A stretch of 64,000 nt of DNA, taken from positions 82,976 through 146,975 of the forward strand of contig CAWIBP010000005.1 of the NCBI GenBank assembly GCA_963834415.1. Direction: 5' to 3'. Below, one piece after another: positions 812 through 36,200 of this stretch. Origin of the DNA: an uncultured Actinomycetes bacterium. Lineage in GTDB: Bacteria; Actinomycetota; Thermoleophilia; Gaiellales; JALYLC01. The translations under genes were made by a program, and so were the position numbers. Every line of letters begins with the position of its first letter. Position 1 is the stretch's first letter. The notes under the pieces were generated by a model that saw only the letters and a program-made list of their open reading frames with translations, made no database searches and was not told where the DNA came from.

Positions 812-1990
812 TCAGCGCTCCCAGAGAGCGCGGTGGACGCGGTCGAGCGAGGCCCCGACCGCCGTCAGCGAGTGGTGGCGCTCGACGTAGCCGGGGCCGA
901 GCGCGCCGAGCTCGCGGCGCCGCTCGGGGTCGAGCGCGAGCGCGCGCAGCTCGGCCGGCAGCGTGTCGGGGTCGGCGCTCACGATCGGACACTCGTCCCA
1001 CTCCGGGTGGAACGGCCGGAAGCGGTCGTTGAGGAAGCACATGACGGGCTTGCCGAGCGCCATCGCCTCGATCGCGAAGAGCGCGTAGGCGCCCAGCAGG
1101 AACTGGTCGGCGACGATGTCGGCGCGCTCGAAGACCTTCCGGGCCTCGTCGTTGGCGAGGCCCTCGACGACGACGAGCTCGATCGCCACGCCCTCGGCCT
1201 GGAGCTCGGCGATCGCGGCCTCGAGGAAGCGCGTGCCCTTGTAATGCCGGTGGTTCGGCGCGTGCACCACGGTGACGACGCCGTCGTCCACCTCGGGCAC
1301 GGGCTGCCAGCTCGTGCTGTCGAACGGGTAGAGCAGTACGCCGTCGAGGCGCGGCAGATCCTCGACGAGGTCGGCGCAGCCGAGCACGACGTCGGCCCAG
1401 CGGCCGAACAGCGCGAGCCGGCGGCGCACGTCGGCCTCCTCGCGATCCTCGGTCCCGGGCGGGATGTCGCTGTAGGCGTGCCAGGGCCCGCGAGCGCGCG
1501 TCGCCGAGACGACGCGCGCGTCGCCGCCGTAGGGATAGACGACGACGCCCTTGCCGGCCAGCCGCAGCAGCGGCAGCTCGATCGCGAGCCCGGGGCCGCC
1601 GAGCAGGCCGCCGTCGAAGAAGAAGCCGAAGTGGTCGTAGCGCAGCCCCGCCCACAGGAACGCGCCGTAGGGGACGAGCCAGCCGATCAGCGGCCGCGAG
1701 CGAGCGCGGTCCAGCGCGATGTCGAAGTCGCCGCGCTGATTGATCCGGTAGACGGTGTAGACGAGGCTGTCGGAGCGGTAGCCGTAGAGCCGCTCGGCCC
1801 GCGTCGCATAGCGGTTGTTGAGAATCGCGCCGGGTCCCCAGAGGACGTCCGGCAGCTGCCCGGCGCGCCGCCTGCGGAAGCGCCGGACGCGCGCGACGGG
1901 GACGACCGCGAGCGCGTAGAGAGTCGCCGTGACCGCCCCTGCGGCAGCGTTCGCGGTGAGCCACCCGAGTGTGTGGAGCCGCTTGGCCAT
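812..1990 (-). CDS. glycosyltransferase (GT1/GT4-like)
   Basis: C-terminal 392 aa of track ORF 812..2572, starting at MAKRLHTLG (ATG 1990). The upstream Arg/Pro-rich part is GC artefact. Motifs VVHAPNHRHYKGTRF and FAIEAMALGKPV are typical of the GT-B fold. Paralog of 2020..3237. Confidence 0.8.
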   Translation of the reverse strand: MAKRLHTLGWLTANAAAGAVTATLYALAVVPVARVRRFRRRRAGQLPDVLWGPGAILNNRYATRAERLYGYRSDSLVYTVYRINQRGDFDIALDRARSRPLIGWLVPYGAFLWAGLRYDHFGFFFDGGLLGGPGLAIELPLLRLAGKGVVVYPYGGDARVVSATRARGPWHAYSDIPPGTEDREEADVRRRLALFGRWADVVLGCADLVEDLPRLDGVLLYPFDSTSWQPVPEVDDGVVTVVHAPNHRHYKGTRFLEAAIAELQAEGVAIELVVVEGLANDEARKVFERADIVADQFLLGAYALFAIEAMALGKPVMCFLNDRFRPFHPEWDECPIVSADPDTLPAELRALALDPERRRELGALGPGYVERHHSLTAVGASLDRVHRALWER

Positions 1991-2003
1991 CTGGCGGAGC
2001 GTG

Positions 2004-2013
2004 ACGCTAGCAT
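2004..2013. promoter_or_regulatory. face-to-face overlapping -10 boxes (ACGCTAGCAT) serving divergent GT genes
   Basis: TAGCAT (2008-2013) lies 6 nt before ATG 2020. On the other strand TAGCGT (2009-2004) lies 13 nt before ATG 1990. The whole intergenic region is 29 bp. Confidence 0.4.
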
Positions 2014-2019
2014 GGCCCC

Positions 2020-3237
2020 ATGCGGCCCAGTGCAAGTGCGCGGCCGCTACGCGTCCTCCACGTCCCGGGTGCCGTCGGCGGCCATCCGCAGGGGCTGGCG
2101 CGCGCCGAGCGCGAGCTCGGCATCGAGAGCCACTCGCTCGTCTACGAGGCCTCGCCGTTCGGCTACGAGGCCGACGAGGTCGTGCTCGGCGTGACTGCCA
2201 CGGCGGCCGAGCGCGCGCGCCTCGAGGCCTTCCGCTTCCGGCTGCTCGCGCGCGTGCTCTCGGGCGCCTACGACGTCGTCCACTACAACTTCGGCCAGTC
2301 GCTCTTCCCGCGCCCGATCGTCCCGGGCTCGCCGGCCGTGGCGGCCTTCCCCGGCCCCCTCCAGCAGCTCTACCGCGGCTGGTCGTCGCTGCTCGGCATG
2401 CGCGATCTCGCGCTCGTGCGCCGGCGCGGCATCGCGCAGTTCGTGACGTTCCAGGGCGACGACGTGCGCCAGGCCGACGTCTGCCGGGCCCGTGACGAGT
2501 GGTCGCCGGCGCGCGAGCTCGAGCCCGACGACGTGGAGCGCGGCATGGATCGCGCGCGGCGCACCGTGGCACGGCGCTTCGACCGCTCGAGCGACGGCGT
2601 CTACTACCTCAATCCCGATCTCGCGCGCGTGCTCCCGCCGCGTGCGCGCTTCATGGCCTACGCGCACGTCGACCCGCGTGCGTGGGTGCCCGTGCCGCAC
2701 CCGCCGAATCCGCGCCCGCTCGTCGTGCACGCGCCCACGGCGCGCGCCATCAAGGGCACCCATCACGTGCTCGCGGCGCTCGACGCGCTGCGCGCCGAGG
2801 GCGTCGAGTTCGACCTCGAGCTGGTCGAGGGGCGCACGCAGGAGCAGGCGCGCCTCGTCTACGCGCGCGCCGACCTCGTGATCGACCAGCTGATGCTCGG
2901 CTGGTACGGCGGCCTGGCCGTCGAGTGCATGGCGCTCGGCGTCCCCGTGCTCGCGCACGTGCGCGAGGAGGACCTGGCGCGCGTGCCGCCCGGCTTCGCG
3001 CGCGAGCTCCCGATCATCGCCGCGACGCCCGGCTCGATCCGCGACGTCCTGCGCTCCTGGCTCGTCGAGCGACGGGCGGAGCTGCCCGAGGCGGGCCGGC
3101 GCGGACGCGCCTTCGTCGAGCGCTGGCACGACCCGCTGCGGATCGCCGCAGAGGTCGTCGAGGACTACCGCGCAGTGGTGGAGACCCGCTCCGGTAGGGG
3201 CTTTGCTAGCGTGGTCGGTGGCGCGCGGCGGGGCTGA
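2020..3237 (+). CDS. glycosyltransferase (GT1/GT4-like)
   Basis: Track ORF of 405 aa with VVHAPTARAIKGTHH...GGLAVECMALGVPVLA. The last ~18 codons read into the conserved leader element, so the true C-terminus may be fortuitous. Confidence 0.8.
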   Translation: MRPSASARPLRVLHVPGAVGGHPQGLARAERELGIESHSLVYEASPFGYEADEVVLGVTATAAERARLEAFRFRLLARVLSGAYDVVHYNFGQSLFPRPIVPGSPAVAAFPGPLQQLYRGWSSLLGMRDLALVRRRGIAQFVTFQGDDVRQADVCRARDEWSPARELEPDDVERGMDRARRTVARRFDRSSDGVYYLNPDLARVLPPRARFMAYAHVDPRAWVPVPHPPNPRPLVVHAPTARAIKGTHHVLAALDALRAEGVEFDLELVEGRTQEQARLVYARADLVIDQLMLGWYGGLAVECMALGVPVLAHVREEDLARVPPGFARELPIIAATPGSIRDVLRSWLVERRAELPEAGRRGRAFVERWHDPLRIAAEVVEDYRAVVETRSGRGFASVVGGARRG

Positions 3238-3319
3238 CGGCGTGGGTCGCGCCCGCGCGTCCGTCCACGTTCCCGCCAGGAAGCGCCCGCATGCAGATCC
3301 AAGGTAAGAGGTTCCTCGT
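3184..3319 (+). promoter_or_regulatory. conserved junction/leader element, copy A (extended -10 TGcTAGCGT, ~72-nt leader, AGGAAG SD, start codon of epimerase)
   Basis: Hand alignment to 24917..25049 gives about 20 differences in ~137 columns. Invariant cores are GGCGGGGCTGACGGCGTG, GTCGCGCCCGCG and TCCCGCCAGGAAGCGC. Confidence 0.55.
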
Positions 3320-4217
3320 CACCGGCGGCGCCGGCTTCGTCGGCTCGCACATCGTCGACCGCCTGCTCGCGGCCGGGGCCGGTGAGGTCGTGGTGCTCGA
3401 CCTCACGCCGCGCGAGACGCATCTCGGCGACGCGCTCGCCACCGGCAAGGTGCGCCTCGAGGCCGGCGACGTGGGCGATCGCAAGCGCCTGGCCGAGGTC
3501 TTCGAGGGCGTCGACGGCCTCTTCCACGCCGCCGTGCTGCCACTCAACAACTGCACCGAGGATCCGCGCACGTGCCTCGAGGTCAACGTCGACGGCACGT
3601 TCAACGTGTATGACGCAGCGCGCGAGGCGGGCGTGGAGAAGATCGTCTTCTCGTCGGCCTCGAGCGTCTATGGCGACACGAACTCGACGATGGACGAGTC
3701 GCATCCGCTGGGCGCCCGCAGCTGGTACGGCGCGAGCAAGATCTGCGGCGAGGCCTTCCTGCACGCGCTCGGCACCCAGACGGGCATCGAGTACGTGATC
3801 CTGCGCTACATGAACGTCTACGGCCCGCGCCAGGACGCCGGCCTCGTGCGCCTAGTGCTCAACCGCATCAACTCCGGGCAGCCCCCGATCATCACGGGCG
3901 ACGGCAGCGCCTCGTTCGACTTCGTGCACGTGGGCGACGTCGCGGAGGCCAACGTCCGCTCCATGGCCTCGGATCTGAATGCGATCGAGATCAACGTCGG
4001 CAGCGGCGGCGAGGCCTCGGTCAAGGAGATCGTCGGTCACCTGCTGCGGCTCACGGGCTCCGAGCTCGAGCCGGAGTACCGCCCCGCGCCGAACGCCGCC
4101 ATGTTCCGCCGCGTGGGCTCCAACGAGCGGCTCGTCGAGCTGCTCGGGTGGCAGCCCGAGCTCGATCTCGACGCCGGCCTCAAGTCGGTCATCGACCACG
4201 TGAAGGCGACCGCGTGA
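3291..4217 (+). CDS. NAD-dependent epimerase/dehydratase (extended SDR, UDP-sugar 4-epimerase-like)
   Basis: MQIQGKRFLVTGGAGFVGSH Rossmann motif and the YGASK catalytic motif. Intact 308-aa track ORF. Confidence 0.9.
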   Translation: MQIQGKRFLVTGGAGFVGSHIVDRLLAAGAGEVVVLDLTPRETHLGDALATGKVRLEAGDVGDRKRLAEVFEGVDGLFHAAVLPLNNCTEDPRTCLEVNVDGTFNVYDAAREAGVEKIVFSSASSVYGDTNSTMDESHPLGARSWYGASKICGEAFLHALGTQTGIEYVILRYMNVYGPRQDAGLVRLVLNRINSGQPPIITGDGSASFDFVHVGDVAEANVRSMASDLNAIEINVGSGGEASVKEIVGHLLRLTGSELEPEYRPAPNAAMFRRVGSNERLVELLGWQPELDLDAGLKSVIDHVKATA

Positions 4218-5083
4218 GGGTGCTCGTGACCGGCGCGTCGGGCTTCGTCGCGCCGCACCTGATCGCGGCGCTGACGGCCCGCGGCGACGAGGTCGTCGCC
4301 AGCGCACGCGACGCCGAGCGCATCCCGGGCGGGCCCGCGGTCGAGCCGCTTCCGCTCGACCTGGGCGCGCCGCTCGACGGCGTCGCGCTGCCCGAGGTCG
4401 ACGCGATCGTGCACCTCGCGCAGGCCAACGTGCCCTACCCCGAGCGCGCGCTCGAGCTGTACAACGTCAACACGCTCTCGACGCTCGGCCTGCTCGACGC
4501 CTGTGCGCGCACGGGTGCCCGCCACTTCGTGCACGCGTCCTCGGGCACGGTCTACGGCCTCGGCGACGAGCCCTTCCGCGAGAGCGATCCGGTGCGCCAC
4601 CACCAGCTCTACGCGACGACGAAGATCCACGCCGAGGATCTCGTCGCGCGCTACGCCGACCAGCTCGACGGCGCCGTCTCGCTGCGGCTCTTCGCGCCCT
4701 ACGGGCCCGGCCAGGTCAACCGCATGATCCCCGGCATCGTCGGGCGCGTGCGCAGCGGCACTCCGGTGTCGCTGAACGCGGGCGGCCGCCCGCGCATGAA
4801 CCCGATCTACATCGACGACGCGGTCGCCGCGATCATCCACGCGCTCGCGAGCGACGGGCACAGGATCGTCAACGTCGCCGGCGACGAGGTCGTCACGATC
4901 CGCCAGATCGCCGAGGCCGCCGGGCGCGCGGTGGGAGTCGAGCCCGTCTTCGAGGACGGCGGCGGCACGGCTGCCGGCGACGTGATCGGCGATACGACGG
5001 AGTTCCGGGCGTGGCTCGGCGACCGCCAGTTCACGATGCTCGACGACGGCGTGGCGCGCACGGCCGCGGCAGCGGAGGGCTAG
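4214..5083 (+). CDS. NAD-dependent epimerase/dehydratase family protein
   Basis: GTG at 4214 overlaps the upstream stop (GTGA). VRVLVTGASGFVAPHL, YATTK. In frame within track ORF 4148..5083. Confidence 0.85.
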   Translation: MRVLVTGASGFVAPHLIAALTARGDEVVASARDAERIPGGPAVEPLPLDLGAPLDGVALPEVDAIVHLAQANVPYPERALELYNVNTLSTLGLLDACARTGARHFVHASSGTVYGLGDEPFRESDPVRHHQLYATTKIHAEDLVARYADQLDGAVSLRLFAPYGPGQVNRMIPGIVGRVRSGTPVSLNAGGRPRMNPIYIDDAVAAIIHALASDGHRIVNVAGDEVVTIRQIAEAAGRAVGVEPVFEDGGGTAAGDVIGDTTEFRAWLGDRQFTMLDDGVARTAAAAEG

Positions 5084-5088
5084 GCCCC

Positions 5089-6927
5089 GTGTGCGGGATC
5101 GCCGCCGTGCTCGATCGCTCGGGGCGCTGGATCGAGCAGCCCGAGCTGCTGCGCATGACCGACGCCATGCGGCACCGCGGACCCGACGACGAAGGCTGGT
5201 ACGCCGGCCACGGCATCGGCCTCGGCAACCGGCGGCTCTCGATCATCGATCTCTCGTCGGCCGGGCATCAGCCCATGTCCAACGAGGACGGCACGATCTG
5301 GATCACCTTCAACGGGATGATCTACAACTACCGCGAGCTGCGGCGCGAGCTGCACGCCCTCGGCCACCGCTTCCGCTCCGCCAGCGACACCGAGGTGATC
5401 GTCCACGCCTACGAGGAGTGGGGCGAGGACTGCCTGCGGCGCTTCGACGGCATGTTCGCGTTCGCGATCTGGGACGCCAACGCGCGCAGCCTGCTCGCCG
5501 CGCGCGACCGCTTCGGCGTCAAGCCGGTCTACTGGGCCGAGCACGACGGGCGCTTCATCCTCGGCTCCGAGCTCAAGGTCGTGCTCGCGGCGGGCGTTCC
5601 GCGGCGCGCCGACGCGAACGCCGTGGTCGAGTACTTCACGTTCCAGAACGTCTTCAGCGACCGCACGCTGATGGCCGGCGTGCACGCGCTGCCGGCCGGC
5701 AGCCTGATCCGGGCCGATGCGGACGGCGTCGCGATCAGGCGCTGGTGGGACTACGAGTTCGATCCCGACGGCTCGCGCTCGCTCGAGCAGTGGGGCGGCG
5801 ATGTGCGCGAGGCGCTCGAGGCCGCGGTCGACCGGCAGCTGGTCTCGGACGTCCCGGTCGGCAGCTATCTCTCCGGCGGCCTCGACTCGGGCTCGCTGGT
5901 CGCGCTCGCATCGCAGAGGGTGCCGCGCCTGATGACGTTCACGGGCGGCTTCGACCTGAGCTCGGTCGAGGGTCTCGAGCTGGTCTTCGACGAGCGTGCC
6001 TCGGCCGAGTCGCTCTCGAGCCGCTTCCGCACCGAGCACTACGAGATGGTCATGCACGAGGGCGACATGGCCTACGCGCTGCCCGACCTGATCTGGCATC
6101 TCGAGGATCTGCGCGTCGGCATGTGCTACCAGAACTACTACATCGCCCGCCTGGCCTCGAAGTTCGTCAAGGTCAGCCTCTCCGGCGCCGGCGGCGACGA
6201 GCTCTTCGGCGGCTATCCGTGGCGCTACGAGCGCGTCGCCGACCTGCACCGCGCCGACGACTTCGACCGCACCTACTTCGACTACTGGTGCCGGCTCGTG
6301 CCGCCCGCCCAGCACGCCTCCTTCTTCACGGCCGCGACCCGCGCCGCCGCGGGCGTCGACACGTTCGACACCTTCCGCGACGTGCTCGCGCCCGTCCAGG
6401 GCCTCGATCCGTACTCCAAGGCGCTCTACTTCGAGCGCAAGACGTTCCTCGACGGGCTGCTCGTCGTCGAGGACCGCGTCTCGATGGCGCACTCGCTCGA
6501 GGCGCGCGTGCCGTTCCTCGACAACGGCCTTGCCGAGCTCGCGGGGCGCATCCCCTCGCAGCTCCTGTGCAGTGGCAGCGAGGGCAAGCCCGTGCTGAGG
6601 GCGGCAGCCGCGAAGCTCTTGCCCGACGAGATCGTGCGCGCCAAGAAGCAGGGCTTCAGCCCGCCCGACCAGTCCTGGTACCGCGGCCCGACGATGGACT
6701 ACATCCGCGCGATCCTGCTCGACGAGCGCAGCCTCTCGCGCGGGTGGTTCGAGCCCGATGCCGTGCGCCGGACGATCGCCGAGCACATCGAGGGCCGCAT
6801 CAACCACCGCCTGCTGCTCTGGTCGCTGCTCTCGTTCGAGTGGTGGAACCGGCTCTTCCTCGACGGCGAGATGCCGCCGCAGGTGACCGTGCGGCGCCCG
6901 TCGGTCGCCGAGCGCTCCGGCGGCTGA
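5089..6927 (+). CDS. asnB: asparagine synthase (glutamine-hydrolysing)-like amidotransferase
   Basis: GTG-Cys start (V)CGIAAVLDR is typical of an Ntn amidotransferase. Also has the RGPDDEG, SDTEV and SGGLDS PP-loop motifs. In frame within track ORF 5011..6927. Confidence 0.9.
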   Translation: MCGIAAVLDRSGRWIEQPELLRMTDAMRHRGPDDEGWYAGHGIGLGNRRLSIIDLSSAGHQPMSNEDGTIWITFNGMIYNYRELRRELHALGHRFRSASDTEVIVHAYEEWGEDCLRRFDGMFAFAIWDANARSLLAARDRFGVKPVYWAEHDGRFILGSELKVVLAAGVPRRADANAVVEYFTFQNVFSDRTLMAGVHALPAGSLIRADADGVAIRRWWDYEFDPDGSRSLEQWGGDVREALEAAVDRQLVSDVPVGSYLSGGLDSGSLVALASQRVPRLMTFTGGFDLSSVEGLELVFDERASAESLSSRFRTEHYEMVMHEGDMAYALPDLIWHLEDLRVGMCYQNYYIARLASKFVKVSLSGAGGDELFGGYPWRYERVADLHRADDFDRTYFDYWCRLVPPAQHASFFTAATRAAAGVDTFDTFRDVLAPVQGLDPYSKALYFERKTFLDGLLVVEDRVSMAHSLEARVPFLDNGLAELAGRIPSQLLCSGSEGKPVLRAAAAKLLPDEIVRAKKQGFSPPDQSWYRGPTMDYIRAILLDERSLSRGWFEPDAVRRTIAEHIEGRINHRLLLWSLLSFEWWNRLFLDGEMPPQVTVRRPSVAERSGG

Positions 6928-6936
6928 GGCGCCGTC

Positions 6937-7794
6937 TCAGCGCCGCGCGGCGTCCACCCACGCGACCAGCGGGCGCAGGCGGTACTTGACGCTCAGCAGC
7001 GGCCGGACGAGCGCCGGAGGCAGCCGCAGCGCGAGGCCGAGCTGCGCGCGGTAGAGGAAGCGCGCCCAGGCCTGCAGCGGATACTGGCGCCGGAACTCGC
7101 GCTCGCGGGCGAACAGACCGGGATGGTTCCTGCGCAACGTGCCGTAGTGCGCGCGGAAGCGCTGCTTGATCGCCGGGTTGATGCGGCCGCCGCCGTGGAT
7201 GCGGTAGTGGAACACGAGCCGGTCGACGAGCAGGCCCGCGGAGTCGTTCTCGGCCAGCGACATGAACAGGTCCCAGTCCTCGTAGCCGCTGCCGTCGGGG
7301 AAGCCGCCGACGGCGGTCACGGCCTCGCGGCGGAACAGGCAGGCCGCCTCCCAGAGGTTCGAGTAGAGCAGGATCCAGGGATTCCAGGGCGCCGCGCGGC
7401 GCACGAAGTCGACGTCGCCGAAGTGGTGGCTGTGGCCGTAGGCGAACGCGTGGCCGGGCGAGGCGTCGAGCGCGTCGGCCATGTCCGTCAGCGCACCGGC
7501 GTCGGCGAGGTCGTCGGCGGCGAGGACGAAGACGTACGGCGTGGTGGCCGCGTCGAAGCCGGCGCGCAGGGCCGACGCCACGCCGCCGTTGGCCTTGCGG
7601 ACGAGCCGGATGCGGCCCTCCTCGGCGAGGCGGTCGAGCAGCGCGACGGTGCGCCGGTCGCGCGAGCCGTCGTCGACGACGACGATCTCGACCGGCTCGT
7701 CCTCGCGGACCGAGTCGACGGTCTCGCCGACCGTCGCGCCGTCCTCGTAGCACGGCACAACGACGGTGATGCGTGCGACTGCCATCTGCTCCAT
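6937..7794 (-). CDS. glycosyltransferase family 2
   Basis: ITVVVPCYEDG...VVDDGS...LAADD motifs. Intact 285-aa track ORF. Confidence 0.9.
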   Translation of the reverse strand: MEQMAVARITVVVPCYEDGATVGETVDSVREDEPVEIVVVDDGSRDRRTVALLDRLAEEGRIRLVRKANGGVASALRAGFDAATTPYVFVLAADDLADAGALTDMADALDASPGHAFAYGHSHHFGDVDFVRRAAPWNPWILLYSNLWEAACLFRREAVTAVGGFPDGSGYEDWDLFMSLAENDSAGLLVDRLVFHYRIHGGGRINPAIKQRFRAHYGTLRRNHPGLFAREREFRRQYPLQAWARFLYRAQLGLALRLPPALVRPLLSVKYRLRPLVAWVDAARR

Positions 7795-7831
7795 GCTCTT
7801 CCGCGCGACCAGCCCGCCAACGTGCGAGCGG

Positions 7832-8653
7832 TCAGGCCGGTGCGTCGCCCTCGGGCTGCTCGAACCAGTACGGCGGCGAGGCTAGCACGCGCAGGTGCCC
7901 GTCGGCGCTCGATGCGCCGTGGTCTGCGCGCAGGAACACCTCGCCGTGCTCGATCGTCTGCACGACGCGCGTGAGCCCCGCGTCGCGCAGCAGTCCACTC
8001 GCCTCGTCCACCGTCGTGCGGCGGTTGAGCGGCGTGCTGAGCAGATCGAACGCCTCGTGTGCCCGGCGCTCGCCGTACATGCGCACGAGCAGGGCCTTGC
8101 GGGCGCGCAGCGGCATCACGTTCAGCACGGCGCGGCCGATGTTCAGCCGCCAGCTCGAGCTGCGCGTCGTCAGCGTCTCGCGCCCGTAGAGGTAGACGTA
8201 GAGCAACCCGTCATCGGCCACGAGCCGCTCGAGCACGCGAATGCCCCTGCCCGTGTCCTCGGTGTGATGCAGCACGCCCCACGACCACACGAGGTCGAAG
8301 CGCTCGCCGGCGAGCAGGCGGTCGGCCTGCAGCACGTCGCCCTCGATCACGCGCACCGTGCCCCCGAAGCGCGCGCGCACCTGGGCCAGCGCGTTGGCGC
8401 TCGCGTCCATCGCCGTCACCTCGCAGCCGAGCCGCACGAAGCCCTCGGTCCAGCGGCCGTTGCCGCAGCCGGCGTCGAGCACCCGGCGCCCGCGGAACCA
8501 CTCGGCGTCGATCGCGAGCTCCTGCTCGCTGATGATGCGCTCGACCTGGGCGCCGAAGCGTGGGTCGTCGGACAGCCAGGCCCCGGTCGGGAGCGAGCCC
8601 CACTGGTAGTCGAAGCTGCGCCGTGCGAGGCGGGCGCGCAGGCTGGCGAGCAT
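7832..8653 (-). CDS. class I SAM-dependent methyltransferase
   Basis: VLDAGCGNGRWTEGFVRLGCEVTAMD...FDLVWSWGVLHHT. Paralog of 1..758. Confidence 0.85.
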   Translation of the reverse strand: MLASLRARLARRSFDYQWGSLPTGAWLSDDPRFGAQVERIISEQELAIDAEWFRGRRVLDAGCGNGRWTEGFVRLGCEVTAMDASANALAQVRARFGGTVRVIEGDVLQADRLLAGERFDLVWSWGVLHHTEDTGRGIRVLERLVADDGLLYVYLYGRETLTTRSSSWRLNIGRAVLNVMPLRARKALLVRMYGERRAHEAFDLLSTPLNRRTTVDEASGLLRDAGLTRVVQTIEHGEVFLRADHGASSADGHLRVLASPPYWFEQPEGDAPA

Positions 8654-8739
8654 TCCCGGGACTCTAGCTGCGGCTGCGACCGCGCTCGTCGGCAGCTCCG
8701 CGCTGCCGCAGCGCCACAGGGCGTCGCCATACTACGTGT

Positions 8740-19917: not shown

Positions 19918-20900
<983 letters not shown>

Positions 20901-21893: not shown

Positions 21894-23071
21894 TCACCGC
21901 TCCCGTGTCCCCGGCGACGACGTCTCGGACGATCGGCTTGAACCTGCTCTACCTTGTTCCCAGCAAGGTCGGCGGGACGGAGGTGTACGCCCGGCTGCTC
22001 GTGCATGCGCTCGCGGCGGCGCAGCCGGACTGGCGCTGGGTCGTCTACTGCGGCCGCGATGCGCGCGAGGCGCTCGCGGCCGAGCACTGGCCCGCGTCGG
22101 TGCGCATCGTCGCCTCGCCCCGCCCATCGGCCGACAAGGCCTCGCGAGCGGCGCTCGAGCAGAGCTGGCTCGCCTGGCGCGCGGGGCGCGACGCCCTCGA
22201 CCTCCTGCACTCCCTGGGCACCACGACCCCTCTGCGCACCCGCTGCCCGCGCGTCGTGACGGTGCACGACCTGATCTACATGCACTACCCGGAGACGTTC
22301 CCGCGCGCCGCGCGCGTCGCGCTGAAGGTGCTCGTCGGCCCCGGCGCGCGCGGCGCGAGCCGCGTGATCGCCGATTCGCAGGCCGGCAAGGACGACATCG
22401 CCAGGCACCTGCGCGTCCCCGCACACCGCATCGACGTCGCCCACCTCGGCGCCAACATCACGCGCGTCGAGGCGACGCCCGAGAGCGAGGTGCGCGCGCG
22501 CTTCGGGCTGGAGGGCCGGCAGGTCTGCCTGTGCGTCTCGGCCGCGCTCGTGCACAAGAACCTCGACGCGCTGATCGAGGCGTTCGGCCGTCTCGCCGCC
22601 AACCGCCCCGACCTCGCGCTCGTGATCGCCGGCCATGCCGGGCGGGAAGGGGAGCGGCTACGGGCCGCGGCCGCCCGCACGGGCCATGCCTCGCGCGTCG
22701 TGCTCACGGGCTGGATCTCGAGCGCCGACCTGGAGGCGCTCTACGACCTCGCCGCCTGCTGCGTCTACCCCTCGCTGCTCGAGGGCTTCGGGCTGCCGCT
22801 GCTCGAGGCGATGGCGCGCGGCGTGCCGATCGCCTCGGCCGACGCCTCGTCGCTGCCGGAGGTGGCGGGCGACGCCGCGGAGCTCTTCGACGGCCGCGAC
22901 GTGCCCTCGATCGGCCGCGCCATCGAGCGCCTGCTGGACGACCGCGCGCACGTCGAGGGCCTGATCGAGCGCGGCCTCGCGCGGGTCGGCCTGTTCACCT
23001 GGGAACGCTGCGCCGCCGCGACGCTCGCCTCCTACGAGCGCGCGCTCGGCGCCTCTGCGGCGCGCTCGTGA
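21890..23071 (+). CDS. glycosyltransferase family 4 (mannosyl/rhamnosyltransferase-like)
   Basis: GGTEVY...VVTVHDLIY...ADSQAGKDDI...YPSLLEGFGLPLLEAMARGVPI. GTG 21890 was chosen within track ORF 21797..23071. Confidence 0.8.
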   Translation: MITAPVSPATTSRTIGLNLLYLVPSKVGGTEVYARLLVHALAAAQPDWRWVVYCGRDAREALAAEHWPASVRIVASPRPSADKASRAALEQSWLAWRAGRDALDLLHSLGTTTPLRTRCPRVVTVHDLIYMHYPETFPRAARVALKVLVGPGARGASRVIADSQAGKDDIARHLRVPAHRIDVAHLGANITRVEATPESEVRARFGLEGRQVCLCVSAALVHKNLDALIEAFGRLAANRPDLALVIAGHAGREGERLRAAAARTGHASRVVLTGWISSADLEALYDLAACCVYPSLLEGFGLPLLEAMARGVPIASADASSLPEVAGDAAELFDGRDVPSIGRAIERLLDDRAHVEGLIERGLARVGLFTWERCAAATLASYERALGASAARS

Positions 23072-23895
23072 GCGCAGCCGCCGTCGTCGTCGCCTGGCGC
23101 GCCGGCGAGCGCGCGGGGGAGTGTCTGGGGCGGATCGCGGAGGTCGCACCCGAGCTGCGGCTCGTGCTCGTCGACAACGAGGCGGGCAGCGGTGCGGGCG
23201 TGGCGGCTCCCGATGGGGCCGAGATCGTGCGCCTGAGCGACAACCGCGGCTTCGCCGGCGGCGCGAACGCGGGCCTCGAGCGCGCCTTCGGCGCGGGCGC
23301 GTCGCACGTGGTGCTGCTGAACGACGACGTGCTCGTCGCGCCCGGCTGCATCGCGGCGCTGATCACGGCCGCCGGCGACGGCGGCGCCGCGTCGCCGCGC
23401 ATCGACGGCCCTCCGGGCGTTGCCTTCGCCGGCGGCGAGCTCGAGCTCGTGCGCGGCTTCGGGCGCCACGTCGAGGGCGCGCTCGACTACCTCAGCGGCG
23501 CCTGCATCTGCTTCTCCCGCGGCGCGTGGGAGGCCGTCGGGCCGTTCAACGAGGAGCTCTTCCTCTACTACGAGGACGTCGAGTGGTCGCTGCGCGCACG
23601 CGCGCTGGGCGTGCCGCTGCGCGTCGCTCAGGACGCCCGCGCGGCCCACAGCGGCGGCGCCTCGAGCGGCGGCGGCGAGGGGGAGACCTGGGCCTACTAC
23701 GCCACGCGCAACCGGCTCTGGCTGCTCGAGGTCGAGCGCGGCGCGCGCGTCGCGCGCCGCGAGGCGGCCCGGACGAGCTTCCGCGCACGGGTGCGAGCGG
23801 TGCAACCGGCGCGCCGCGCCGTCTCCCAGGCAAAGCTTGCGGGTGTGAAGGACTGGTCCGCACGGCGCATGGGGCGGGGGCCGTGGCCCCGCTGA
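23068..23895 (+). CDS. glycosyltransferase family 2
   Basis: GTGA-coupled GTG at 23068. LVLVDNEAGSG...NRGFAGGAN...YYEDVEWSLR. In frame within track ORF 22531..23895. Confidence 0.8.
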   Translation: MSAAAVVVAWRAGERAGECLGRIAEVAPELRLVLVDNEAGSGAGVAAPDGAEIVRLSDNRGFAGGANAGLERAFGAGASHVVLLNDDVLVAPGCIAALITAAGDGGAASPRIDGPPGVAFAGGELELVRGFGRHVEGALDYLSGACICFSRGAWEAVGPFNEELFLYYEDVEWSLRARALGVPLRVAQDARAAHSGGASSGGGEGETWAYYATRNRLWLLEVERGARVARREAARTSFRARVRAVQPARRAVSQAKLAGVKDWSARRMGRGPWPR

Positions 23896-24911
23896 CGGTC
23901 GCCTTCGACGTCGCCTGCCTGACGCAGACGCGTGCGGGCACCGCGCGCCTGGCCGTCGGCCTGCGCGATGCGCTGCAGGCGAGGTCCGACGTGGAGCTGA
24001 TCGAGCTCGGCGATCGCGAGTGGCAGGAGCGCGGCTCGTTCGGCCAGAAGCGCGATGCGCTGCAGCAGGATCTCGCCTGGTACGGCCTGCGGCTCGCGAG
24101 GGAGGCGCGCACGAGCGGCGCGCAGCTGCTCCACTGCCCGACGTTCCGCGGCCCGCTGCGACACGCCGGCCTGCCCACGGTGGTGACGGTGCACGACCTC
24201 GCCGTCCTGCGCGAGCCGGCCTGGTTCCCGGTTTGGAGCCGCAACTACGGGCGCACGCTGATGCCGCGCGCCGTGCGCAACGCCGACCGCGTGATCTGCG
24301 TCTCGCGCGCCACGGCCCGCGATGCCGTGGGCCTGCTCGACGTGCCGTTCCGCAACCTGCGCGTGATCCCGAACGCGATCGAGCCGGTGTTCTCGACGCC
24401 CCCGGGGCCGGCGCCGCTCGAGACGCCCTACCTGCTCTGCGTGGGCACACCCGAGCCGCGCAAGAACCTGCCGGCGCTGCTCGAGGCGTTCACGCTCGTG
24501 CGCCGCGCCGGGCGCCGCGTGCGCCTCGCGCTGGTCGGCGCCGACGGCTGGGGCGACGTGCGCGTCGGCTCGACCGAGGGCGTCGTGGCCTTCGGGCGCG
24601 TCGACGACAGCGAGCTGCGCGACCTCTACGCGCACGCCGAGGCGCTCGTGCTGCCGAGCCTCTGGGAGGGCTTCGGGCTGCCGGTCGCCGAGGCGCTCGC
24701 GACCGGCTGCCGCGTGGCCTGCTCCGACATCCCCGCGCTGCGCGAGCTGGCGGGCGAGGATGCGACCTACTTCGACCCCTCGACGCCCGAGGCGATCGCC
24801 GAGGGCATCCTGCGCTCGCTCACGCGGCCGCGGCCGCAGCCCCGCCGCGGCTCGAGCTGGGACGACGCCGCCGCGTCGGTCGTCTCGCTCTGGCGCGAGC
24901 TCGTGCGGTGA
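23883..24911 (+). CDS. glycosyltransferase family 4
   Basis: GTG at 23883 within track ORF 23121..24911. VVTVHDLAVL...LLCVGTPEPRKN...LPSLWEGFGLPVAEALATG. Confidence 0.85.
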   Translation: MAPLTVAFDVACLTQTRAGTARLAVGLRDALQARSDVELIELGDREWQERGSFGQKRDALQQDLAWYGLRLAREARTSGAQLLHCPTFRGPLRHAGLPTVVTVHDLAVLREPAWFPVWSRNYGRTLMPRAVRNADRVICVSRATARDAVGLLDVPFRNLRVIPNAIEPVFSTPPGPAPLETPYLLCVGTPEPRKNLPALLEAFTLVRRAGRRVRLALVGADGWGDVRVGSTEGVVAFGRVDDSELRDLYAHAEALVLPSLWEGFGLPVAEALATGCRVACSDIPALRELAGEDATYFDPSTPEAIAEGILRSLTRPRPQPRRGSSWDDAAASVVSLWRELVR

Positions 24912-24916
24912 GCTCC

Positions 24917-25049
24917 ACCCGCTCCCGGAAGGGCTTTGGTAGCGTGCTCGGAGGCGCGTGGCGGGGCTGACGGCGTGCGTCGCGCCCGCGTGTCCGTCCG
25001 ATCCCGCCAGGAAGCGCTCCATGCAGACCCAGGGTGAGAAGGTCCCTCG
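24917..25049 (+). promoter_or_regulatory. conserved junction/leader element, copy B (extended -10 TGgTAGCGT at 24940-24945)
   Basis: See copy A. It starts 6 nt after the stop of the upstream GT4 gene and ends inside a 19-codon uORF. Confidence 0.55.
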
Positions 25050-25080
25050 CCGCACGATGCGGCCCGCGCCGAGCTCCTAG
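25021..25080 (+). CDS. candidate uORF MQTQGEKVPRRTMRPAPSS (homologous to the first 8 codons of the 3291 epimerase)
   Basis: Same AGGAAG SD and ATG context as copy A. The stop lies 8 nt before ATG 25089. Confidence 0.3.
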   Translation: MQTQGEKVPRRTMRPAPSS

Positions 25081-25088
25081 CGGCCCCG

Positions 25089-26228
25089 ATGCGATCGCTC
25101 ACGGCAGCCAAGGCGCGCGCGGGGGGCCTGCCGATGCTCGGCGACCTCACGGGCTCGCGCGCCCGCGGCATGGATGTCCTGCGCCTCGCGGCCGCGACGC
25201 TCGTGATCGTCGCCCACTCCTACAACCTCACGCTGCGCGAGGAGCCGTTCCGGCGCTTCGGCGGCCCCGAGCTCGGCGACATCGCCGTCGCGGTCTTCTT
25301 CGCGATCAGCGGCTTCCTCGTGACCGCGAGCTGGATCTCCGACCCGCGCCTACGCTCGTTCGTCGCGCGGCGCGCGCTGCGCATCCTGCCGGGCCTCTGG
25401 GTCGTGCTGCTCGTGAGCGTGCTCGGCTTCGGCCTGGTCGTCACCGCGCAGCCGGTCGTCACCTACCTGACCTCGCTCGAGACCTGGCGCTATCCGCTCG
25501 AGCGCGCGGTCGTGTTCTCGACGCGCCCGAGCCTGCCGGGCGTCTTCACGACGAACCCCTACGGCAGCGCCGTCAACGGCTCGCTCTGGACGCTGCCGGT
25601 CGAGGTGACGGCCTATCTCGCCACGCTCGTGGTCGGCGTCGCCGGCCTGTTGACCCGCCGGCGCGGGCTCGTCGTCGTGGCGATCGCGCTGCTGATGGTG
25701 ATCCAGGAGACGATCCTGCCGACCGCCAGCGGCCTCGTCGAGAGCGACTCGCCGGGCGCGGTGCTGCACTGGCTCGTGTACTTCGGCCTGTTCTACGCCG
25801 TGGGCGCGCTGCTCTTCCTCTACCGCGAGTACGTGCCGGTCTCGCTCGGCGCGGCCGCGGCGGCGCTGATCGTGCTCGGCCTGAGCTTCGACACCCCGGC
25901 GATGGCGATCGTGAGCCAGCTCACGCTGCCCTACGTCGTGCTCGTGCTCGGCTACCGCGCCCCGGAGCTCGTCGACCGCTGCTTCCGGCGGCTCGGCGAC
26001 ATCTCGTACGGCACCTACATCTACGCGTTCCCGGTGCAGCAGACGCTGATCCACTTCGACACGGGCATCGGCCCCGTGCGCCTGATCCTCTACAGCATCC
26101 CGGTCACCTACGCCTTCGCGTATCTCTCCTGGCACCTCGTCGAGCGGCCGGCGTTGCGCCTCCGCCGCCGGCTCACCGGTGAGCCGGATCACGCGCCGCG
26201 CGCTGCGATCGTGCCCGCCGCGCGCTGA
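25089..26228 (+). CDS. acyltransferase family 3 (O-acyltransferase) membrane protein
   Basis: VLRLAAATLVIVAHS...AVFFAISGFLV motifs and about 10 TM segments. Later in-frame Met starts are possible. Confidence 0.85.
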   Translation: MRSLTAAKARAGGLPMLGDLTGSRARGMDVLRLAAATLVIVAHSYNLTLREEPFRRFGGPELGDIAVAVFFAISGFLVTASWISDPRLRSFVARRALRILPGLWVVLLVSVLGFGLVVTAQPVVTYLTSLETWRYPLERAVVFSTRPSLPGVFTTNPYGSAVNGSLWTLPVEVTAYLATLVVGVAGLLTRRRGLVVVAIALLMVIQETILPTASGLVESDSPGAVLHWLVYFGLFYAVGALLFLYREYVPVSLGAAAAALIVLGLSFDTPAMAIVSQLTLPYVVLVLGYRAPELVDRCFRRLGDISYGTYIYAFPVQQTLIHFDTGIGPVRLILYSIPVTYAFAYLSWHLVERPALRLRRRLTGEPDHAPRAAIVPAAR

Positions 26229-28471: not shown

Positions 28472-29580
28472 ATGCCCGCCGCCCCGCTCGTGCTGATCGA
28501 CGGGGACACGGTCGGGCGCGGGCGCACCGGCGACGAGAGCTACACGATCAACCTGCTGCGCGAGCTGCCCGGCGCGGCGCCGGAGCTGGCGTTCGCCGCG
28601 TCGCTGCGCGATCCGGCCGACCTGCCGGGCGACGTGCCGGCGGCGGTGCGCCGGATCCGGCTCGACGTCGCGAGCCCGTACCGCCGCATCCCGCTCGCGT
28701 TTCCCGCGCTCGCCCGCACCGAGCGGGCGGCGCTCGTCCACGTGCACTACTTCGTCGCCCCCGGGCTGCGGCAGCCCGCGGTCGTGACGGTGCACGACAT
28801 CTCGTACGCCCGCCAGCCCGAGCTGTTCTCGCGGCGCGACCGCTCGCTGCTGCGCCTCGTGCGCGGCTCCGTGCGCCGCGCCGCGCGCGTGATCGCCGTC
28901 TCGGAGTTCACGCGCGGCGACCTCTGCGACCACTACGGGCTCGATCCGGCCAAGGTCGTCGCGATCCCGAACGGCGTCGGCGACGCGTTCCGGCCGCTGC
29001 CGGACGCCGGCGCGCGCGTGCGCGAGCGCTTCGGCATCGACCGGCCCTACGTGCTCTGCGTCGGCGCGCTGCAGCCGCGCAAGAACGTGCCGCTCGCGAT
29101 CGAGGCGTACGCTCGCCTGATGGGGCGCGGCAGCGAGTGCGAGCTCGTCGTCGCCGGCGGCGACCGGGGCGGCCGCATCGACGTGCTCGATGCGATCCTG
29201 CGCACGCGCATGACCGGACGCGTCCACCTGCTCGGCCACGTCGAGGAGGAGCGAGCTGCCCGCGCTCTACAGCGCCGCGCGGGCGCTCGTCTTCCCCTCG
29301 CTCTACGAGGGCTTCGGGCTCCCGGCGCTCGAGGCGATGGCGCGCGGGCACGCCCGTCGTCGCGAGCAACACGACCGGCCTCGCGGAGGCGGTCGGCGAC
29401 GCCGGCCTGACCGTCGACCCGAGCAGCGCCGACGAGCTCGCCGAGGCGCTCGGCCGCGTGCTCGGCGACGACGCCCTGCGCACGCGGCTGATCGCCGCCG
29501 GGCACGAGCGCGCGGCGCGCTTCACGTGGGCGCGCACGGCCGCGGCGACCGCCGCCGTGTATCGCGAGGCGCTGGCATGA
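28472..29580 (+). pseudogene. glycosyltransferase family 4, frame-disrupted (two apparent +1 insertions)
   Basis: TATCCT-N6-ATG 28472. VVTVHDISY...VLCVGALQPRKN...HVEEE is followed, after a frame change, by [32 protein letters not shown], and after a second by [13 protein letters not shown]. Junctions are near 29251 and 29348. Confidence 0.8.
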
Positions 29581-31293: not shown

Positions 31294-33315
31294 CTACGCC
31301 GGAGCCGCGACGGTCGGCTGCTCGCTGTCGGCGCGCCGCGGGTTGGCGATCATGGCGCGCACGCGTGCCAGCGCGCCCGGCTCGTCGCCCTCGGCGATCA
31401 GCCGCTCGAGCGCGTCGAGCTCGGCCTCGAGCCACTCCGGCGAGATCGGCGAGCGGCGGGCGCGCATGAGCTTGTCGTGGTGGGTGCGCTCGACCTCCTC
31501 GCTGTCCTCGAAGAGGCCCTCGTGCAGCTTCTCGCCCGGCCGGATGCCGGTGATCACGACCTGGATGTCCTTCTCGGGCTCGAGCCCGGAGAGGCGGATC
31601 ATGTCGTTCGCGAGGTCGACGATGCGCACCGGGTCGCCCATGTCGAGCACGAAGACGTCGCCGCCCTGGCCGACGCCGCCGGCCTGCACGATCAGCTGCG
31701 CGGCCTCGTGGATCGTCATGAAGTAGCGCGTCATCTGCGGATCGGTGACCGTGACCGGCCCGCCGCGCGCGATCTGCTCGCGGAAGATCGGCACGACCGA
31801 GCCGGACGAGCCGAGCACGTTGCCGAAGCGCACGGCGACGAACGTCGTCTCGCTCTCGACCTGCCCGAGCGCCTCGACGACCCACTCGGCGAGCGCCTTG
31901 CTCGCGCCCATCACGGTCTTCGGGTAGACGGCCTTGTCGGTCGAGACGAGCACGAAGCGGTCGGCGCCGTGGCGCGCGGCGAGGCGGGCGACCGTGCGCG
32001 TGGCGAGCGCGTTGTTGCGCAGCGCCTGCACCGGATGCTGCTCCATCAGCGGCACGTGCTTGTAGGCCGCGGCGTGGAACACGACGGCCGGGCGGTGCAC
32101 CTCGAAGACCGTCTCCATGCGGGCCGCGTCGCGCACGTCGGCGATCTCCGGGACGATCTCGATGCGGCCCGACTCGCGCAGCTCGCGGTCGATCTGGAAG
32201 AGGTTGTTCTCGGCGTGGTCGGCGAGCACGAGCCGGCCGACCTCCATGCGCACGAGCTGGCGGCAGAGCTCGGAGCCGATCGAGCCGCCGGCGCCGGTCA
32301 CGAGCACGGTGCGGCCGCGCACGTAGGCGCCGACCGCGGCGGGGTCGAGCGCCACGGGCTCGCGGCCGAGGATGTCCTCCACCTGCACGTCGCGCAGCTG
32401 GGGCACGAGGTCGTTGTCGCCGTTGACGAGGTCGCTGACGTTCGGCAGCGTCTTGACCGGCACGCCCGCCTCGCGGCAGGTCGCGACCACGGCCGCGCGA
32501 CGACGGCCGCCGGCCGAGGGCAGCGCGATGTGCACCTCGTCGGGCTGGCGCGCCTTGCAGGATCTCGGGCAGGTCGGCGGTCGTGCCGAGCACCTTGATG
32601 CCCTGGAAGCGGTAGCGCAGCTTGTTGCGGTCGTCGTCGATCAGCCCGATCGGCGTGTAGCCGGTCAGCCGGTTCGAGAGCATCTCGCGCAGGATCAGGT
32701 TGCCGGCGTCGCCGGCGCCGACGATCAGCACCTTCTTGCCCTGCGCCACGAACGAGCCGCGGCGCGGGCGCTCCATCAGCGAGCGGGCGAGCACGCGCGC
32801 GCCGCCGAGCAGGATCAGCGTGAAGACGAGATCGAGCAGCAGCGCGCGCTTGGCCGGCGCGCGCTCGCGCGCGGTTCGCGGCGCGAGGCTCTCGGTGATG
32901 CCGTTCTTCTTCACCTGGTACACGCAGCCGTCGATCTTCGCGGTCTCGCACGTCGGCGCAGCGAGCTGGGCCTTCTGGCCGGCCGAGGCCTCGGGGCGGA
33001 TCGTCACGTCGCGCGGGAACTTGACGATCGAGAACGCCAGCAGCAGCACGATGCTGGCGATGCCGACCGCGCGCAGCAGGGCGTTGACGTCGCGCAGCGA
33101 GAGGTAGCGCCACCACTTGTTGTACGCCCCGAAGCGCGCCCAGGCAGATCGAGCTTGATGACGATGACGATCGCGATCGTCTGCTTCCAGTACGCGTCCC
33201 ACCCGGGATTGCGCTGGATCTGGAACCCGACCACGTAGGTGGCGTACCAGGCGACGCCGATGAGGACGGCGTCGACGGCGACCTGCCACAGACGGTGGCG
33301 GTTCAACAGCCCCAT
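31294..33315 (-). pseudogene. membrane-bound polysaccharide biosynthesis protein CapD/WbpM-like (UDP-HexNAc 4,6-dehydratase), frame-disrupted
   Basis: Joins track ORFs 33004..33315 (TM N-terminus), a segment of 31142..34183 (VLIVGAGDAGNLILREM...) and 31294..32535 (VLVTGAGGSIGSEL...YKHVPLME). Junctions are near 33142 and 32555. The net length is a multiple of 3. Confidence 0.85.
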
Positions 33316-35795: not shown

Positions 35796-36200
35796 TCAGG
35801 CAGCGTCGGCGGTGATCTCGCTCACCGAGATGCCCCACGCCTTGCCCGTCGCGAACAGCTCGTCCGGATCGACCTCGCCGACCCAGCCGATGAAGTGCCG
35901 CTCGTGCTTGCGCGGCGTCGATCCGAAGACCGCCTTGCGCAGCTTCGGCGCGGGCCCTTCCTTCTGCGCGCTCGAGATTGGCGAGTGCTTCCTCGACCGC
36001 TGGTCCCTCGGCATAGCCTTTACCCATGCGCGCACCGTAGCGCGCGTCCGCCGGTCGCGGGCATCAGGCCGACGCGCGCGGCTCGACGACCGCGGGCGTC
36101 CCGCCGCGTCCGCGGTGGCGAGCGTCAGGTAGCGGTTGCCGGCGACGATCCGCCGCGCGAGGCGCTCCAGCTCGCGCCGGTCGGCGTCGCTCGGAGTCAC
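35796..36200 (-). pseudogene. pyridoxamine 5'-phosphate oxidase-like small protein, frame-disrupted
   Basis: GTGA-coupled GTG at 36200 reads VTPSDADRRELERLARRIVAGNRYLTLATADAAGRP, after which the frame is lost. The assignment rests on the N-terminal motif only. Confidence 0.35.

Follow-up and report, generated by a model that had tools for sequence, protein, structure and literature searches.

A 64,000-nucleotide (nt) stretch of DNA from an uncultured Actinomycetes bacterium (assembly GCA_963834415.1, contig CAWIBP010000005.1, positions 82,976 to 146,975 of the forward strand), referred to as the window throughout this paper, has a G+C content of 73.4% and contains two copies of one gene junction in its glycan locus. 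To avoid any confusion, here we use J for this junction, copy A for its native occurrence in front of an epimerase gene, and copy B (J') for the occurrence in front of an acyltransferase gene. J is probably a lineage-specific promoter-leader-start module, internal to a sugar-modification operon, which was duplicated by a rearrangement of the locus, and the scar at copy B keeps the expression signals of the module at the relocated acyltransferase gene. A duplication of this sort is an ordinary kind of event with a conventional explanation, and it establishes neither a new RNA class nor an antitermination system.

The Two Copies of the Junction

Copy A (3184-3266) and copy B (24917-24999) were aligned without gaps over 83 nt at 89% identity in a repeat search of the window (repeat family D11), and a MAFFT alignment carries the similarity past the ATG to about 3319 and 25049, respectively, with three small indels. 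The match between the two copies is highly significant (blastn-short, E = 5.8e-25; nhmmer, E = 8e-45 and 2e-42), and the repeat first pointed out in a sequence-only reading of this DNA is borne out by all these searches. The homology of copy B begins further to the left than was first reported, at about 24897-24905. In a covariance model the true copies score 77-105 bits and the next best match in the window 19.8 bits. No third copy was found by nhmmer and the covariance model in the whole window or in 13 related loci. A weak nhmmer match at 33053-33157 was rejected as a third copy, as it lies in a gene-dense stretch and all the conserved cores were found to be missing on inspection. The features of the two copies are as follows.

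3184..3319, + strand: copy A (J), the native junction, consisting of the 3' tail of the upstream open reading frame (ORF), the putative promoter, the leader and the first ~9 epimerase codons (repeat search, alignment, nhmmer, orthologous junctions)
24897..25049, + strand: copy B (J'), a chimeric junction with the same putative promoter, leader, Shine-Dalgarno (SD) sequence and ATG (extended -10 TGGTAGCGT, 24937-24945; leader, 24953-25020; SD, 25009-25014)
3204..3212, + strand: extended -10 motif TGCTAGCGT, with a transcription start site predicted at ~3219-3220 after a variable 7-nt spacer (3213-3219)
3220..3290, + strand: GC-rich 5' leader with a long imperfect hairpin, which is predicted only (pairs 3220-3224/3283-3287, 3227-3233/3271-3277 and 3236-3247/3251-3265; SD AGGAAG, 3278-3283)

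The TGnTAGCGT motif (3204-3212; 24937-24945), the AGGAAG SD (3278-3283; 25009-25014), the ATG (3291; 25021) and the three invariant cores named in the sequence-only reading are present in both copies. Its description of the element as non-coding holds for the intergenic stretch inside J and fails for the two ends, which are formed by the 3' tail of a gene (54 nt of ORF 2020-3237) and by the first ~9 codons after the ATG. The last 18 codons of ORF 2020-3237 lie inside J, and the stop codon of this 405-aa ORF (TGA, 3235-3237) is located within the conserved GGGGCTGACGG and within the conserved GCTGACGG. Copy A had been placed between a glycosyltransferase gene and an epimerase gene; the epimerase was confirmed, and the glycosyltransferase reading of the upstream gene is not supported, as nothing matching it was obtained in sequence searches of Pfam, NCBIfam and PDB. 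The ATG of copy B (25021) opens a 19-codon ORF only (25021-25080), and the ATG of the acyltransferase gene is at 25089.

Conservation of the Junction in Related Lineages

The epimerase encoded behind copy A has 18 close relatives with 79-97% amino acid identity, all metagenomic, after which the identity falls to 65%. The relatives examined were the contigs of several of these epimerases, a GTDB metagenome-assembled genome (MAG; CAVQLU010000005.1, uncultured Actinomycetes), a metagenome pattern match (L076), and a 720-kb MAG contig (L083). The junction between a 394-412-aa gene and the epimerase gene is present in at least nine related metagenomic or MAG contigs of uncultured Actinomycetota, with orthologous J junctions in L001-L005, L076, L081, and L083. 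J exists beyond this genome and is therefore more than a recent local duplication, and the observation is stronger than the sequence-only reading had it, since the element is conserved in other genomes. The stop codon of the upstream gene precedes the epimerase ATG by ~54 nt in L001-L004, where the gene was called; in L083, as called (6227 to 6309), the gap is 81 nt, and in L082 it is 43 nt.

The core of the junction is a peak of conservation, with a mean pairwise identity of 0.88-0.97 over 3203-3291 vs ~0.83 in the flanking coding sequence. Copy A is identical to the J of L001 at 82 of 91 positions, compared with 0.69 at the third positions of the epimerase codons (P = 1.5e-6); copy B is identical to the J of L083 at 83 of 90 positions, compared with 0.77 at the third positions of the acyltransferase codons (P = 1.5e-4). 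Both copies are under purifying selection, and copy B, with a conservation above that at synonymous sites in its flank, is therefore no decaying relic. In the 18 codons of the upstream ORF tail inside J, changes fall at codon positions 1 and 2 while third positions are fixed, from which it follows that nucleotides, not protein, are constrained; conservation of the tail at the protein level was rejected on the same evidence.

J is less well kept in two more distant relatives. In L081 (79% epimerase identity) the identity of J is 0.73-0.80, which is not significantly above that of synonymous sites (P = 0.09). In L082 (81% epimerase identity) the -10 motif TCTGGTAGCGT and the start region are kept, the motif despite differing surroundings, and the ~36-nt central hairpin is missing. 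The junction of L082 (600-680) is also a natural variant in which the stop codon of the upstream gene is the TAG of the -10 hexamer. J was absent from L085 and L086 according to the covariance model and comparison. The pattern GGGGCTGACGGCGTGNGTCGCGCC had one match in a genome collection, an orthologous MAG, and the pattern GGGCTGACGGN{20,45}CCGCCAGGAAG had 75 matches in metagenome contigs, one of them true and 74 due to chance. J was found only in a single narrow clade and, apart from copy B, only in a single orthologous context. The dataset of J sequences is shallow (~10 sequences, mostly 85-97% related).

The Putative Promoter

Both copies contain an extended -10 motif of the form TGnTAnnnT. 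In the alignment of 10 J sequences, no change is seen in the T, the G or TAGCGT, either G or C occurs at the 'n', the following 7-nt spacer is variable in sequence and constant in length, and the ~70 nt after the spacer are almost invariant. A -10 element followed by a discriminator that includes the start site, and then by a transcribed leader, would be expected to leave such a pattern. We infer promoter activity from this pattern, with transcription starting near 3219 in copy A and near 24952 in copy B, and the reading of J as an extended -10 followed by a leader of ~70 nt, an SD and an ATG, already put forward in the sequence-only reading, is supported.

The wider window is consistent with a promoter of this class. 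TANNNT occurs 49 times on both strands vs ~300 expected from the base composition, a depletion of ~6-fold, and it lies 6-9 nt before the start codon in 12 of the 66 predicted genes, including the gene upstream of J. TGNTANNNT is found nine times, two of which are in J and J', and five of the seven other sites are 6-13 nt before a long ORF with a high G+C content at third codon positions (GC3). The spacing of TANNNT suggests that the transcriptome of the window is largely leaderless; an earlier remark that starts of this kind are common here, which makes a long leader unusual, agrees with these counts.

In Mycobacterium tuberculosis, TANNNT and TGNTANNNT promoters without a -35 element, internal transcription starts and abundant leaderless mRNAs were documented (PMC3898074). 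J resembles the sigma-A promoters of that organism in its motif, the absence of a recognisable -35, a -10 located ~7 nt before the predicted start, a position within the 3' end of the upstream gene, and a genome that appears rich in leaderless mRNAs (PMC3898074). It differs from them in that its start is a prediction and that it is coupled to an unusually long, invariant and GC-rich leader, most promoters of the window being apparently leaderless.

Promoters seem to turn over elsewhere in the same locus. In the region 7780-7905, at the GT2 gene (6937-7794, - strand), a TACGAT-N6-ATG promoter of the leaderless type is present in L083, L084 and L002 and missing from the window. In place of that promoter, the GT2 gene of the window has an SD-like GGAAGAG ahead of its ATG, and the 3' end of the upstream methyltransferase gene contains, at a distance of 84 nt before the ATG, TGCTAGCCT (7887-7879), a motif specific to the window; the region appears to be a case of promoter turnover.

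Origin of the Second Copy

The genes at the native junction and at copy B, placed by frame-specific GC3 and Pfam, are listed below.

2020..3237, + strand: upstream 405-aa ORF without a family match, preceded by its own putative TAGCAT-N6-ATG promoter of the leaderless type
3291..4217, + strand: NAD-dependent epimerase/dehydratase, first gene of the operon putatively driven by J
4214..5083, + strand: second epimerase, following the first in the operon
5089..6927, + strand: AsnB-like amidotransferase (asnB), following the second epimerase in the operon
6892..6927, + strand: replaced C-terminal tail of asnB, a scar where the acyltransferase gene was located ancestrally (in the window, ...PPQVT followed by VRRPSVAERSGG and the stop; in relatives, ...PPQVTLPRAMRPxPSS and the stop)
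23883..24911, + strand: GT4 glycosyltransferase gene, cut short in its native C-terminus by the left breakpoint of copy B (...LWREL, then VR and the stop)
25021..25080, + strand: 19-codon chimeric ORF (MQTQGEKVPRRTMRPAPSS and the stop), in which epimerase codons 1 to ~9 are in frame with the last 10 asnB codons
25089..26228, + strand: Acyl_transf_3 O-acyltransferase gene, relocated from behind asnB, with an alternative start at ATG 25134

The flanks of copy B map to segments that are not adjacent in the ancestral gene order, as revealed by breaks of synteny relative to L083, L084, L001 and L002 and by breakpoint alignments. In a blastn comparison of L083 with the window, L083 3799-9924 corresponds to 820-6900, L083 9919-11095 to 25051-26228 (the last 10 asnB codons and the acyltransferase gene), L083 11101-12820 to 6936-8672, and L083 12864-14727 (GT4) to 23065-24901. 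The J of L083 (6193-6336) corresponds to 24905-25049, so that copy B joins the GT4 and the acyltransferase segments. The nearest acyltransferase orthologs (86% identity; L083 and L084) are encoded between asnB, which they follow directly, and a convergent GT2 gene. The acyltransferases of L001 and L002 are more distant (71-75% identical) and have the same position, and L001, L002 and L084 all have the gene order of L083.

At the left breakpoint the GT4 gene (stop, 24909-24911) lost its last ~9 native codons. At the right, the 19-codon ORF reads MQTQGEKVP from the epimerase and then RRTMRPAPSS and the stop, the end of asnB in relatives being ...LPRAMRPAPSS and the stop. Its stop is located 8 nt before the acyltransferase ATG, as in the ancestral junction between asnB and the acyltransferase gene. 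Both breakpoints of copy B fall within short similar stretches (GCGGT; TCC(C)TCG). The genes flanking copy B are unrelated to those flanking copy A, as had been stated before, and this is explained by copy B being a chimeric rearrangement junction, a point missed in the sequence-only reading. The origin and the anatomy of both copies are established in this way.

Copy B is 0.92 identical to the J of L083 and 0.87 identical to copy A, and it has derived states in common with the J of L083 (CAGACC, a 1-nt deletion before CATG, GCGCT, and TCCCGG). It is nearer to the J of L083 and therefore did not arise by recent copying of copy A. One tandem duplication of the segment from J to GT4 would account for the joint between GT4 and J and fails on the present position of the block; it was rejected as a complete explanation.

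At the former site, the last 12 codons of the AsnB-like gene (6892-6927) are unrelated to the tail conserved in all relatives, and a search for the source of the new tail (VRRPSVAERSGG) was negative. Exact look-ups of the epimerase and the acyltransferase of the window returned no record. In the more distant L085 (8497-11128) and L086 (119-1841), an acyltransferase homolog (71-73% identity) follows a gene for a Bac_transf priming transferase, not asnB, so that related glycan loci have the acyltransferase gene in no fewer than three different places.

A Proposed Model and the Evidence Against It

Based on these results, the following course of events is proposed. J would provide an internal sigma-A-type promoter, with its extended -10 TGnTAGCGT in the 3' tail of the upstream gene, followed by a GC-rich leader of ~70 nt, the AGGAAG SD and the start codon. 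In the ancestor, as in the relatives, the operon behind J would have comprised the epimerase, the second epimerase, the AsnB-like amidotransferase and the O-acyltransferase. A multi-step rearrangement would then have taken the acyltransferase gene and the last 10 codons of asnB off the end of the operon to a place ~18 kb away behind the GT4 gene, where the join would have been made by a second J with the first ~9 epimerase codons in frame with the asnB tail. Copy B would thereby give the relocated gene its former promoter, leader and ribosome entry site, and the short translated ORF would still end at the native stop just before the acyltransferase start. All four former members of the operon would remain under the same expression signals.

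Polysaccharide gene clusters are known to be remodelled by segmental duplication and deletion of operon parts, with capture of promoters. The present case is similar in that the J module is duplicated and fused to a moved gene, the breakpoints are in genes at short similar stretches, and reciprocal scars are found at the old site. It differs from the usual course in that the fusion at copy B keeps an in-frame mini-ORF up to a native stop, and in that the copy groups with the J of another lineage.

Several points weigh against this model. From the base composition by itself, ~15 TGNTANNNT sites are expected, and one site is no proof of the predicted promoter. Scans for E. coli-type promoters and terminators were empty, as expected at 73% GC. 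The closeness of copy B to the J of L083 means that recombination with a related strain, not an intragenomic duplication, may have been its source. The in-frame fusion of the 19-codon ORF is expected by chance in one case out of three, and the start of the acyltransferase gene is ambiguous, with ATG 25134 making translational coupling looser. Finally, the loops as well as the stems of the leader are invariant over ~70 nt, which is beyond the need of a simple stabiliser hairpin and leaves room for a sequence-specific regulator.

The Leader and Its Possible Role as a Regulatory RNA

The hairpin predicted for the leader starts at or within 1 nt of the predicted transcription start, and its outer stem (3220-3224 with 3283-3287) links the 5' end to the short stretch that separates the SD from the AUG. 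A 5'-end hairpin of such a kind could stabilise the 5' end of an mRNA and damp translation initiation. Stabilisation of the mRNA 5' end and/or damping of translation initiation would most likely be the role of the modelled hairpin, because its outer stem would pair the first transcribed bases with those between the SD and the AUG. The 5' untranslated region of E. coli ompA is an example of the 5'-terminal stem-loop stabilisers of mRNA and translation-damping leaders. The J hairpin is like stabilisers of the ompA type in its location at the predicted +1 and in the pairing of its outer stem between the SD and the AUG. It is unlike them in that it comes from folding only, that the invariance of J goes beyond that of a generic stabiliser, and that L082 is without the hairpin.

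It may also be proposed that the ~70-nt leader acts as a cis-regulatory RNA with a defined structure (for instance an attenuator, a riboswitch, or a leader bound by a protein), which would sense a signal and co-regulate the sugar-modification genes, the duplication serving to preserve the regulon; this is compatible with a promoter in J and is considered unlikely, though with some chance of being right. In its favour, lineages with 65-77% identity at synonymous sites have almost the same leader sequence, in the loops too; constraint acts on the two window copies alike; and among the mostly leaderless genes of this genome a leader of such length is an exception. L081, with a 2-nt insertion and three adjacent substitutions, still folds to the same three-stem architecture, which is suggestive and not decisive at 77% G+C. 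Against these points, about equal numbers of pairs are broken and kept in L081, L082 lacks the whole hairpin with an epimerase as close as 81% identity, and the element is restricted to a narrow clade, being absent from L085 and L086. Moreover, the conserved RNA structure suggested as possible in the sequence-only reading is not supported by the alignment: the covariation term of alifold was +0.66 with one compensatory pair, 55 of 500 column shuffles did as well, and most pairs never vary, which leaves the power of the test low. The leaders folded no more stably than shuffled sequence, with z-scores from -1.0 to +1.0 (leaders, 0.0, 0.0, -1.0, and -0.8). As for the helices proposed by hand, the 8-bp pairing of GCGCGCGG with CCGCGCGU is outside the consensus fold, and the alternative GGCGGGG/CCCGCC pairing is part of it. 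Rfam gave no match at the gathering threshold in the whole window and only a chance miRNA match at E<=10 around both copies, in agreement with the earlier statement that no known riboswitch class is recognised. A conserved upstream ORF in the leader was also considered and rejected, as its frame is displaced by indels and its stop codon is not retained among the sequences.

A more specific form of this proposal, in which the leader would be a regulatory RNA peculiar to an uncultured Thermoleophilia-like lineage of Actinomycetota, bound by a metabolite or a protein and possibly accompanied by an ops-like TGGTAGCGTG on the non-template strand, and would co-ordinate the synthesis of an amidated, O-acylated sugar, is given a slightly lower chance. 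If it were true, the retention of J at the relocated acyltransferase gene would reflect selection to hold this gene in the regulon.

Other Explanations of the Repeat

Copy B could be a non-functional scar and J a slowly diverging intercistronic region without a promoter, the two downstream genes being expressed by read-through from upstream promoters. This is compatible with the shallowness of the J dataset and with the tendency of GC-rich sequence to fold well anyway. It is nevertheless improbable: the conservation of both copies is significantly above that at synonymous sites in their flanks, the -10 motif is retained in L082, and TANNNT is not only strongly depleted in the window but also strongly tied to gene starts.

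An analogy with processive antitermination was raised as a hypothesis in the sequence-only reading. In such a case J would carry an ops-like site that recruits a NusG paralog, in the manner of JUMPstart/ops with RfaH or of LoaP leaders. The 12-mer TTTG(G/C)TAGCGTG (3201-3212; 24934-24945) agrees with the E. coli ops12 GGCGGTAGCGTG at nine of 12 positions in copy B and at eight in copy A. The form TTTGGTAGCGTG, found in copy B and most orthologs, matches ops12 at positions 4-12. J is also situated in a glycan locus, and read-through transcription of the upstream gene would pass across it. The likeness to JUMPstart/ops further includes the location at the head of glycan-biosynthesis genes (with GGTAGCGTG as the 9/12 match), and ops itself is a promoter-like, pause-inducing signal of the non-template strand (PMC5995543). 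However, ops needs an invariant G5 and T6 and a C3:G8 pair, and RfaH recruitment is abolished by G5A and reduced by C3G (PMC5995543). At these critical positions J has T for C3 in all copies and C for G5 in copy A and L004, and the position that varies corresponds exactly to the 'n' of TGnTAnnnT, which is free. The motif of J coincides with the -10 and does not lie in the transcribed leader, and the same motif class is found directly before leaderless genes in the window. No NusG/KOW protein was detected among 53 ORFs of the window scanned against Pfam, and no RfaH/LoaP-like gene was seen; the operon is short, with three to four genes, and the phylum differs from that of the known systems. Rfam, in which JUMPstart and EAR are presumably included as families, matched neither of them in the two copies at E<=10, and leaders of the EAR or LoaP type had no Rfam match in J at the gathering threshold or at E<=10. 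The antitermination analogy is thus not supported and is regarded as very improbable, and the resemblance to ops12 is judged to follow simply from both motifs being -10-like.

A small mobile or recombination element, such as a miniature inverted-repeat transposable element, a repetitive extragenic palindromic-like sequence, or an attC-like site, might be suspected from the location of the repeat at gene boundaries and at a rearrangement junction and from its imperfect palindrome, and it is effectively refuted by copy number (two copies in 64 kb, one per related locus, and the single true matches of the two pattern searches) and by the edges of copy B, which are gene fragments (the epimerase 5' end and the asnB 3' end), while both window copies are on the + strand directly before a + strand ORF, and terminal inverted repeats and target-site duplications were not seen on reading the copy boundaries, no dedicated search having been made.

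Other Genes of the Window

The divergent ~400-aa genes at 812-2035 (- strand) and 2020-3237 (+ strand) appear to be paralogous, as indicated by reciprocal 68-70% nucleotide cross-matches via L083. Faint GT-B-like matches were obtained only for the former. The starts of the two genes overlap a common divergent promoter region of 30 nt with TGCTAGCGT and TAGCAT.

Several genes look frameshifted or truncated (28472-29480; 19918-20492, - strand; 36197-36601, - strand; 49156-49842; 58488-59096, - strand), which suggests an indel-rich (long-read) assembly or pseudogenes. Homology to GT4 runs on beyond the stop near 29410 (repeat families D1 and D2), the GDP-mannose 4,6-dehydratase gene is split, and argininosuccinate lyase, peptidase M19 and molybdopterin oxidoreductase are present as fragments only.

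Implications

The junction provides a base-resolved case in which a glycan locus was reshuffled with expression apparently preserved, the moved gene having taken along a promoter-leader-start module and a mini-ORF. It also yields a usable, predicted promoter signature for an uncultured actinomycete lineage, TANNNT or TGnTAnnnT and mostly leaderless, and against this background one exceptional long leader, under purifying selection, is flagged as a candidate for experiments.

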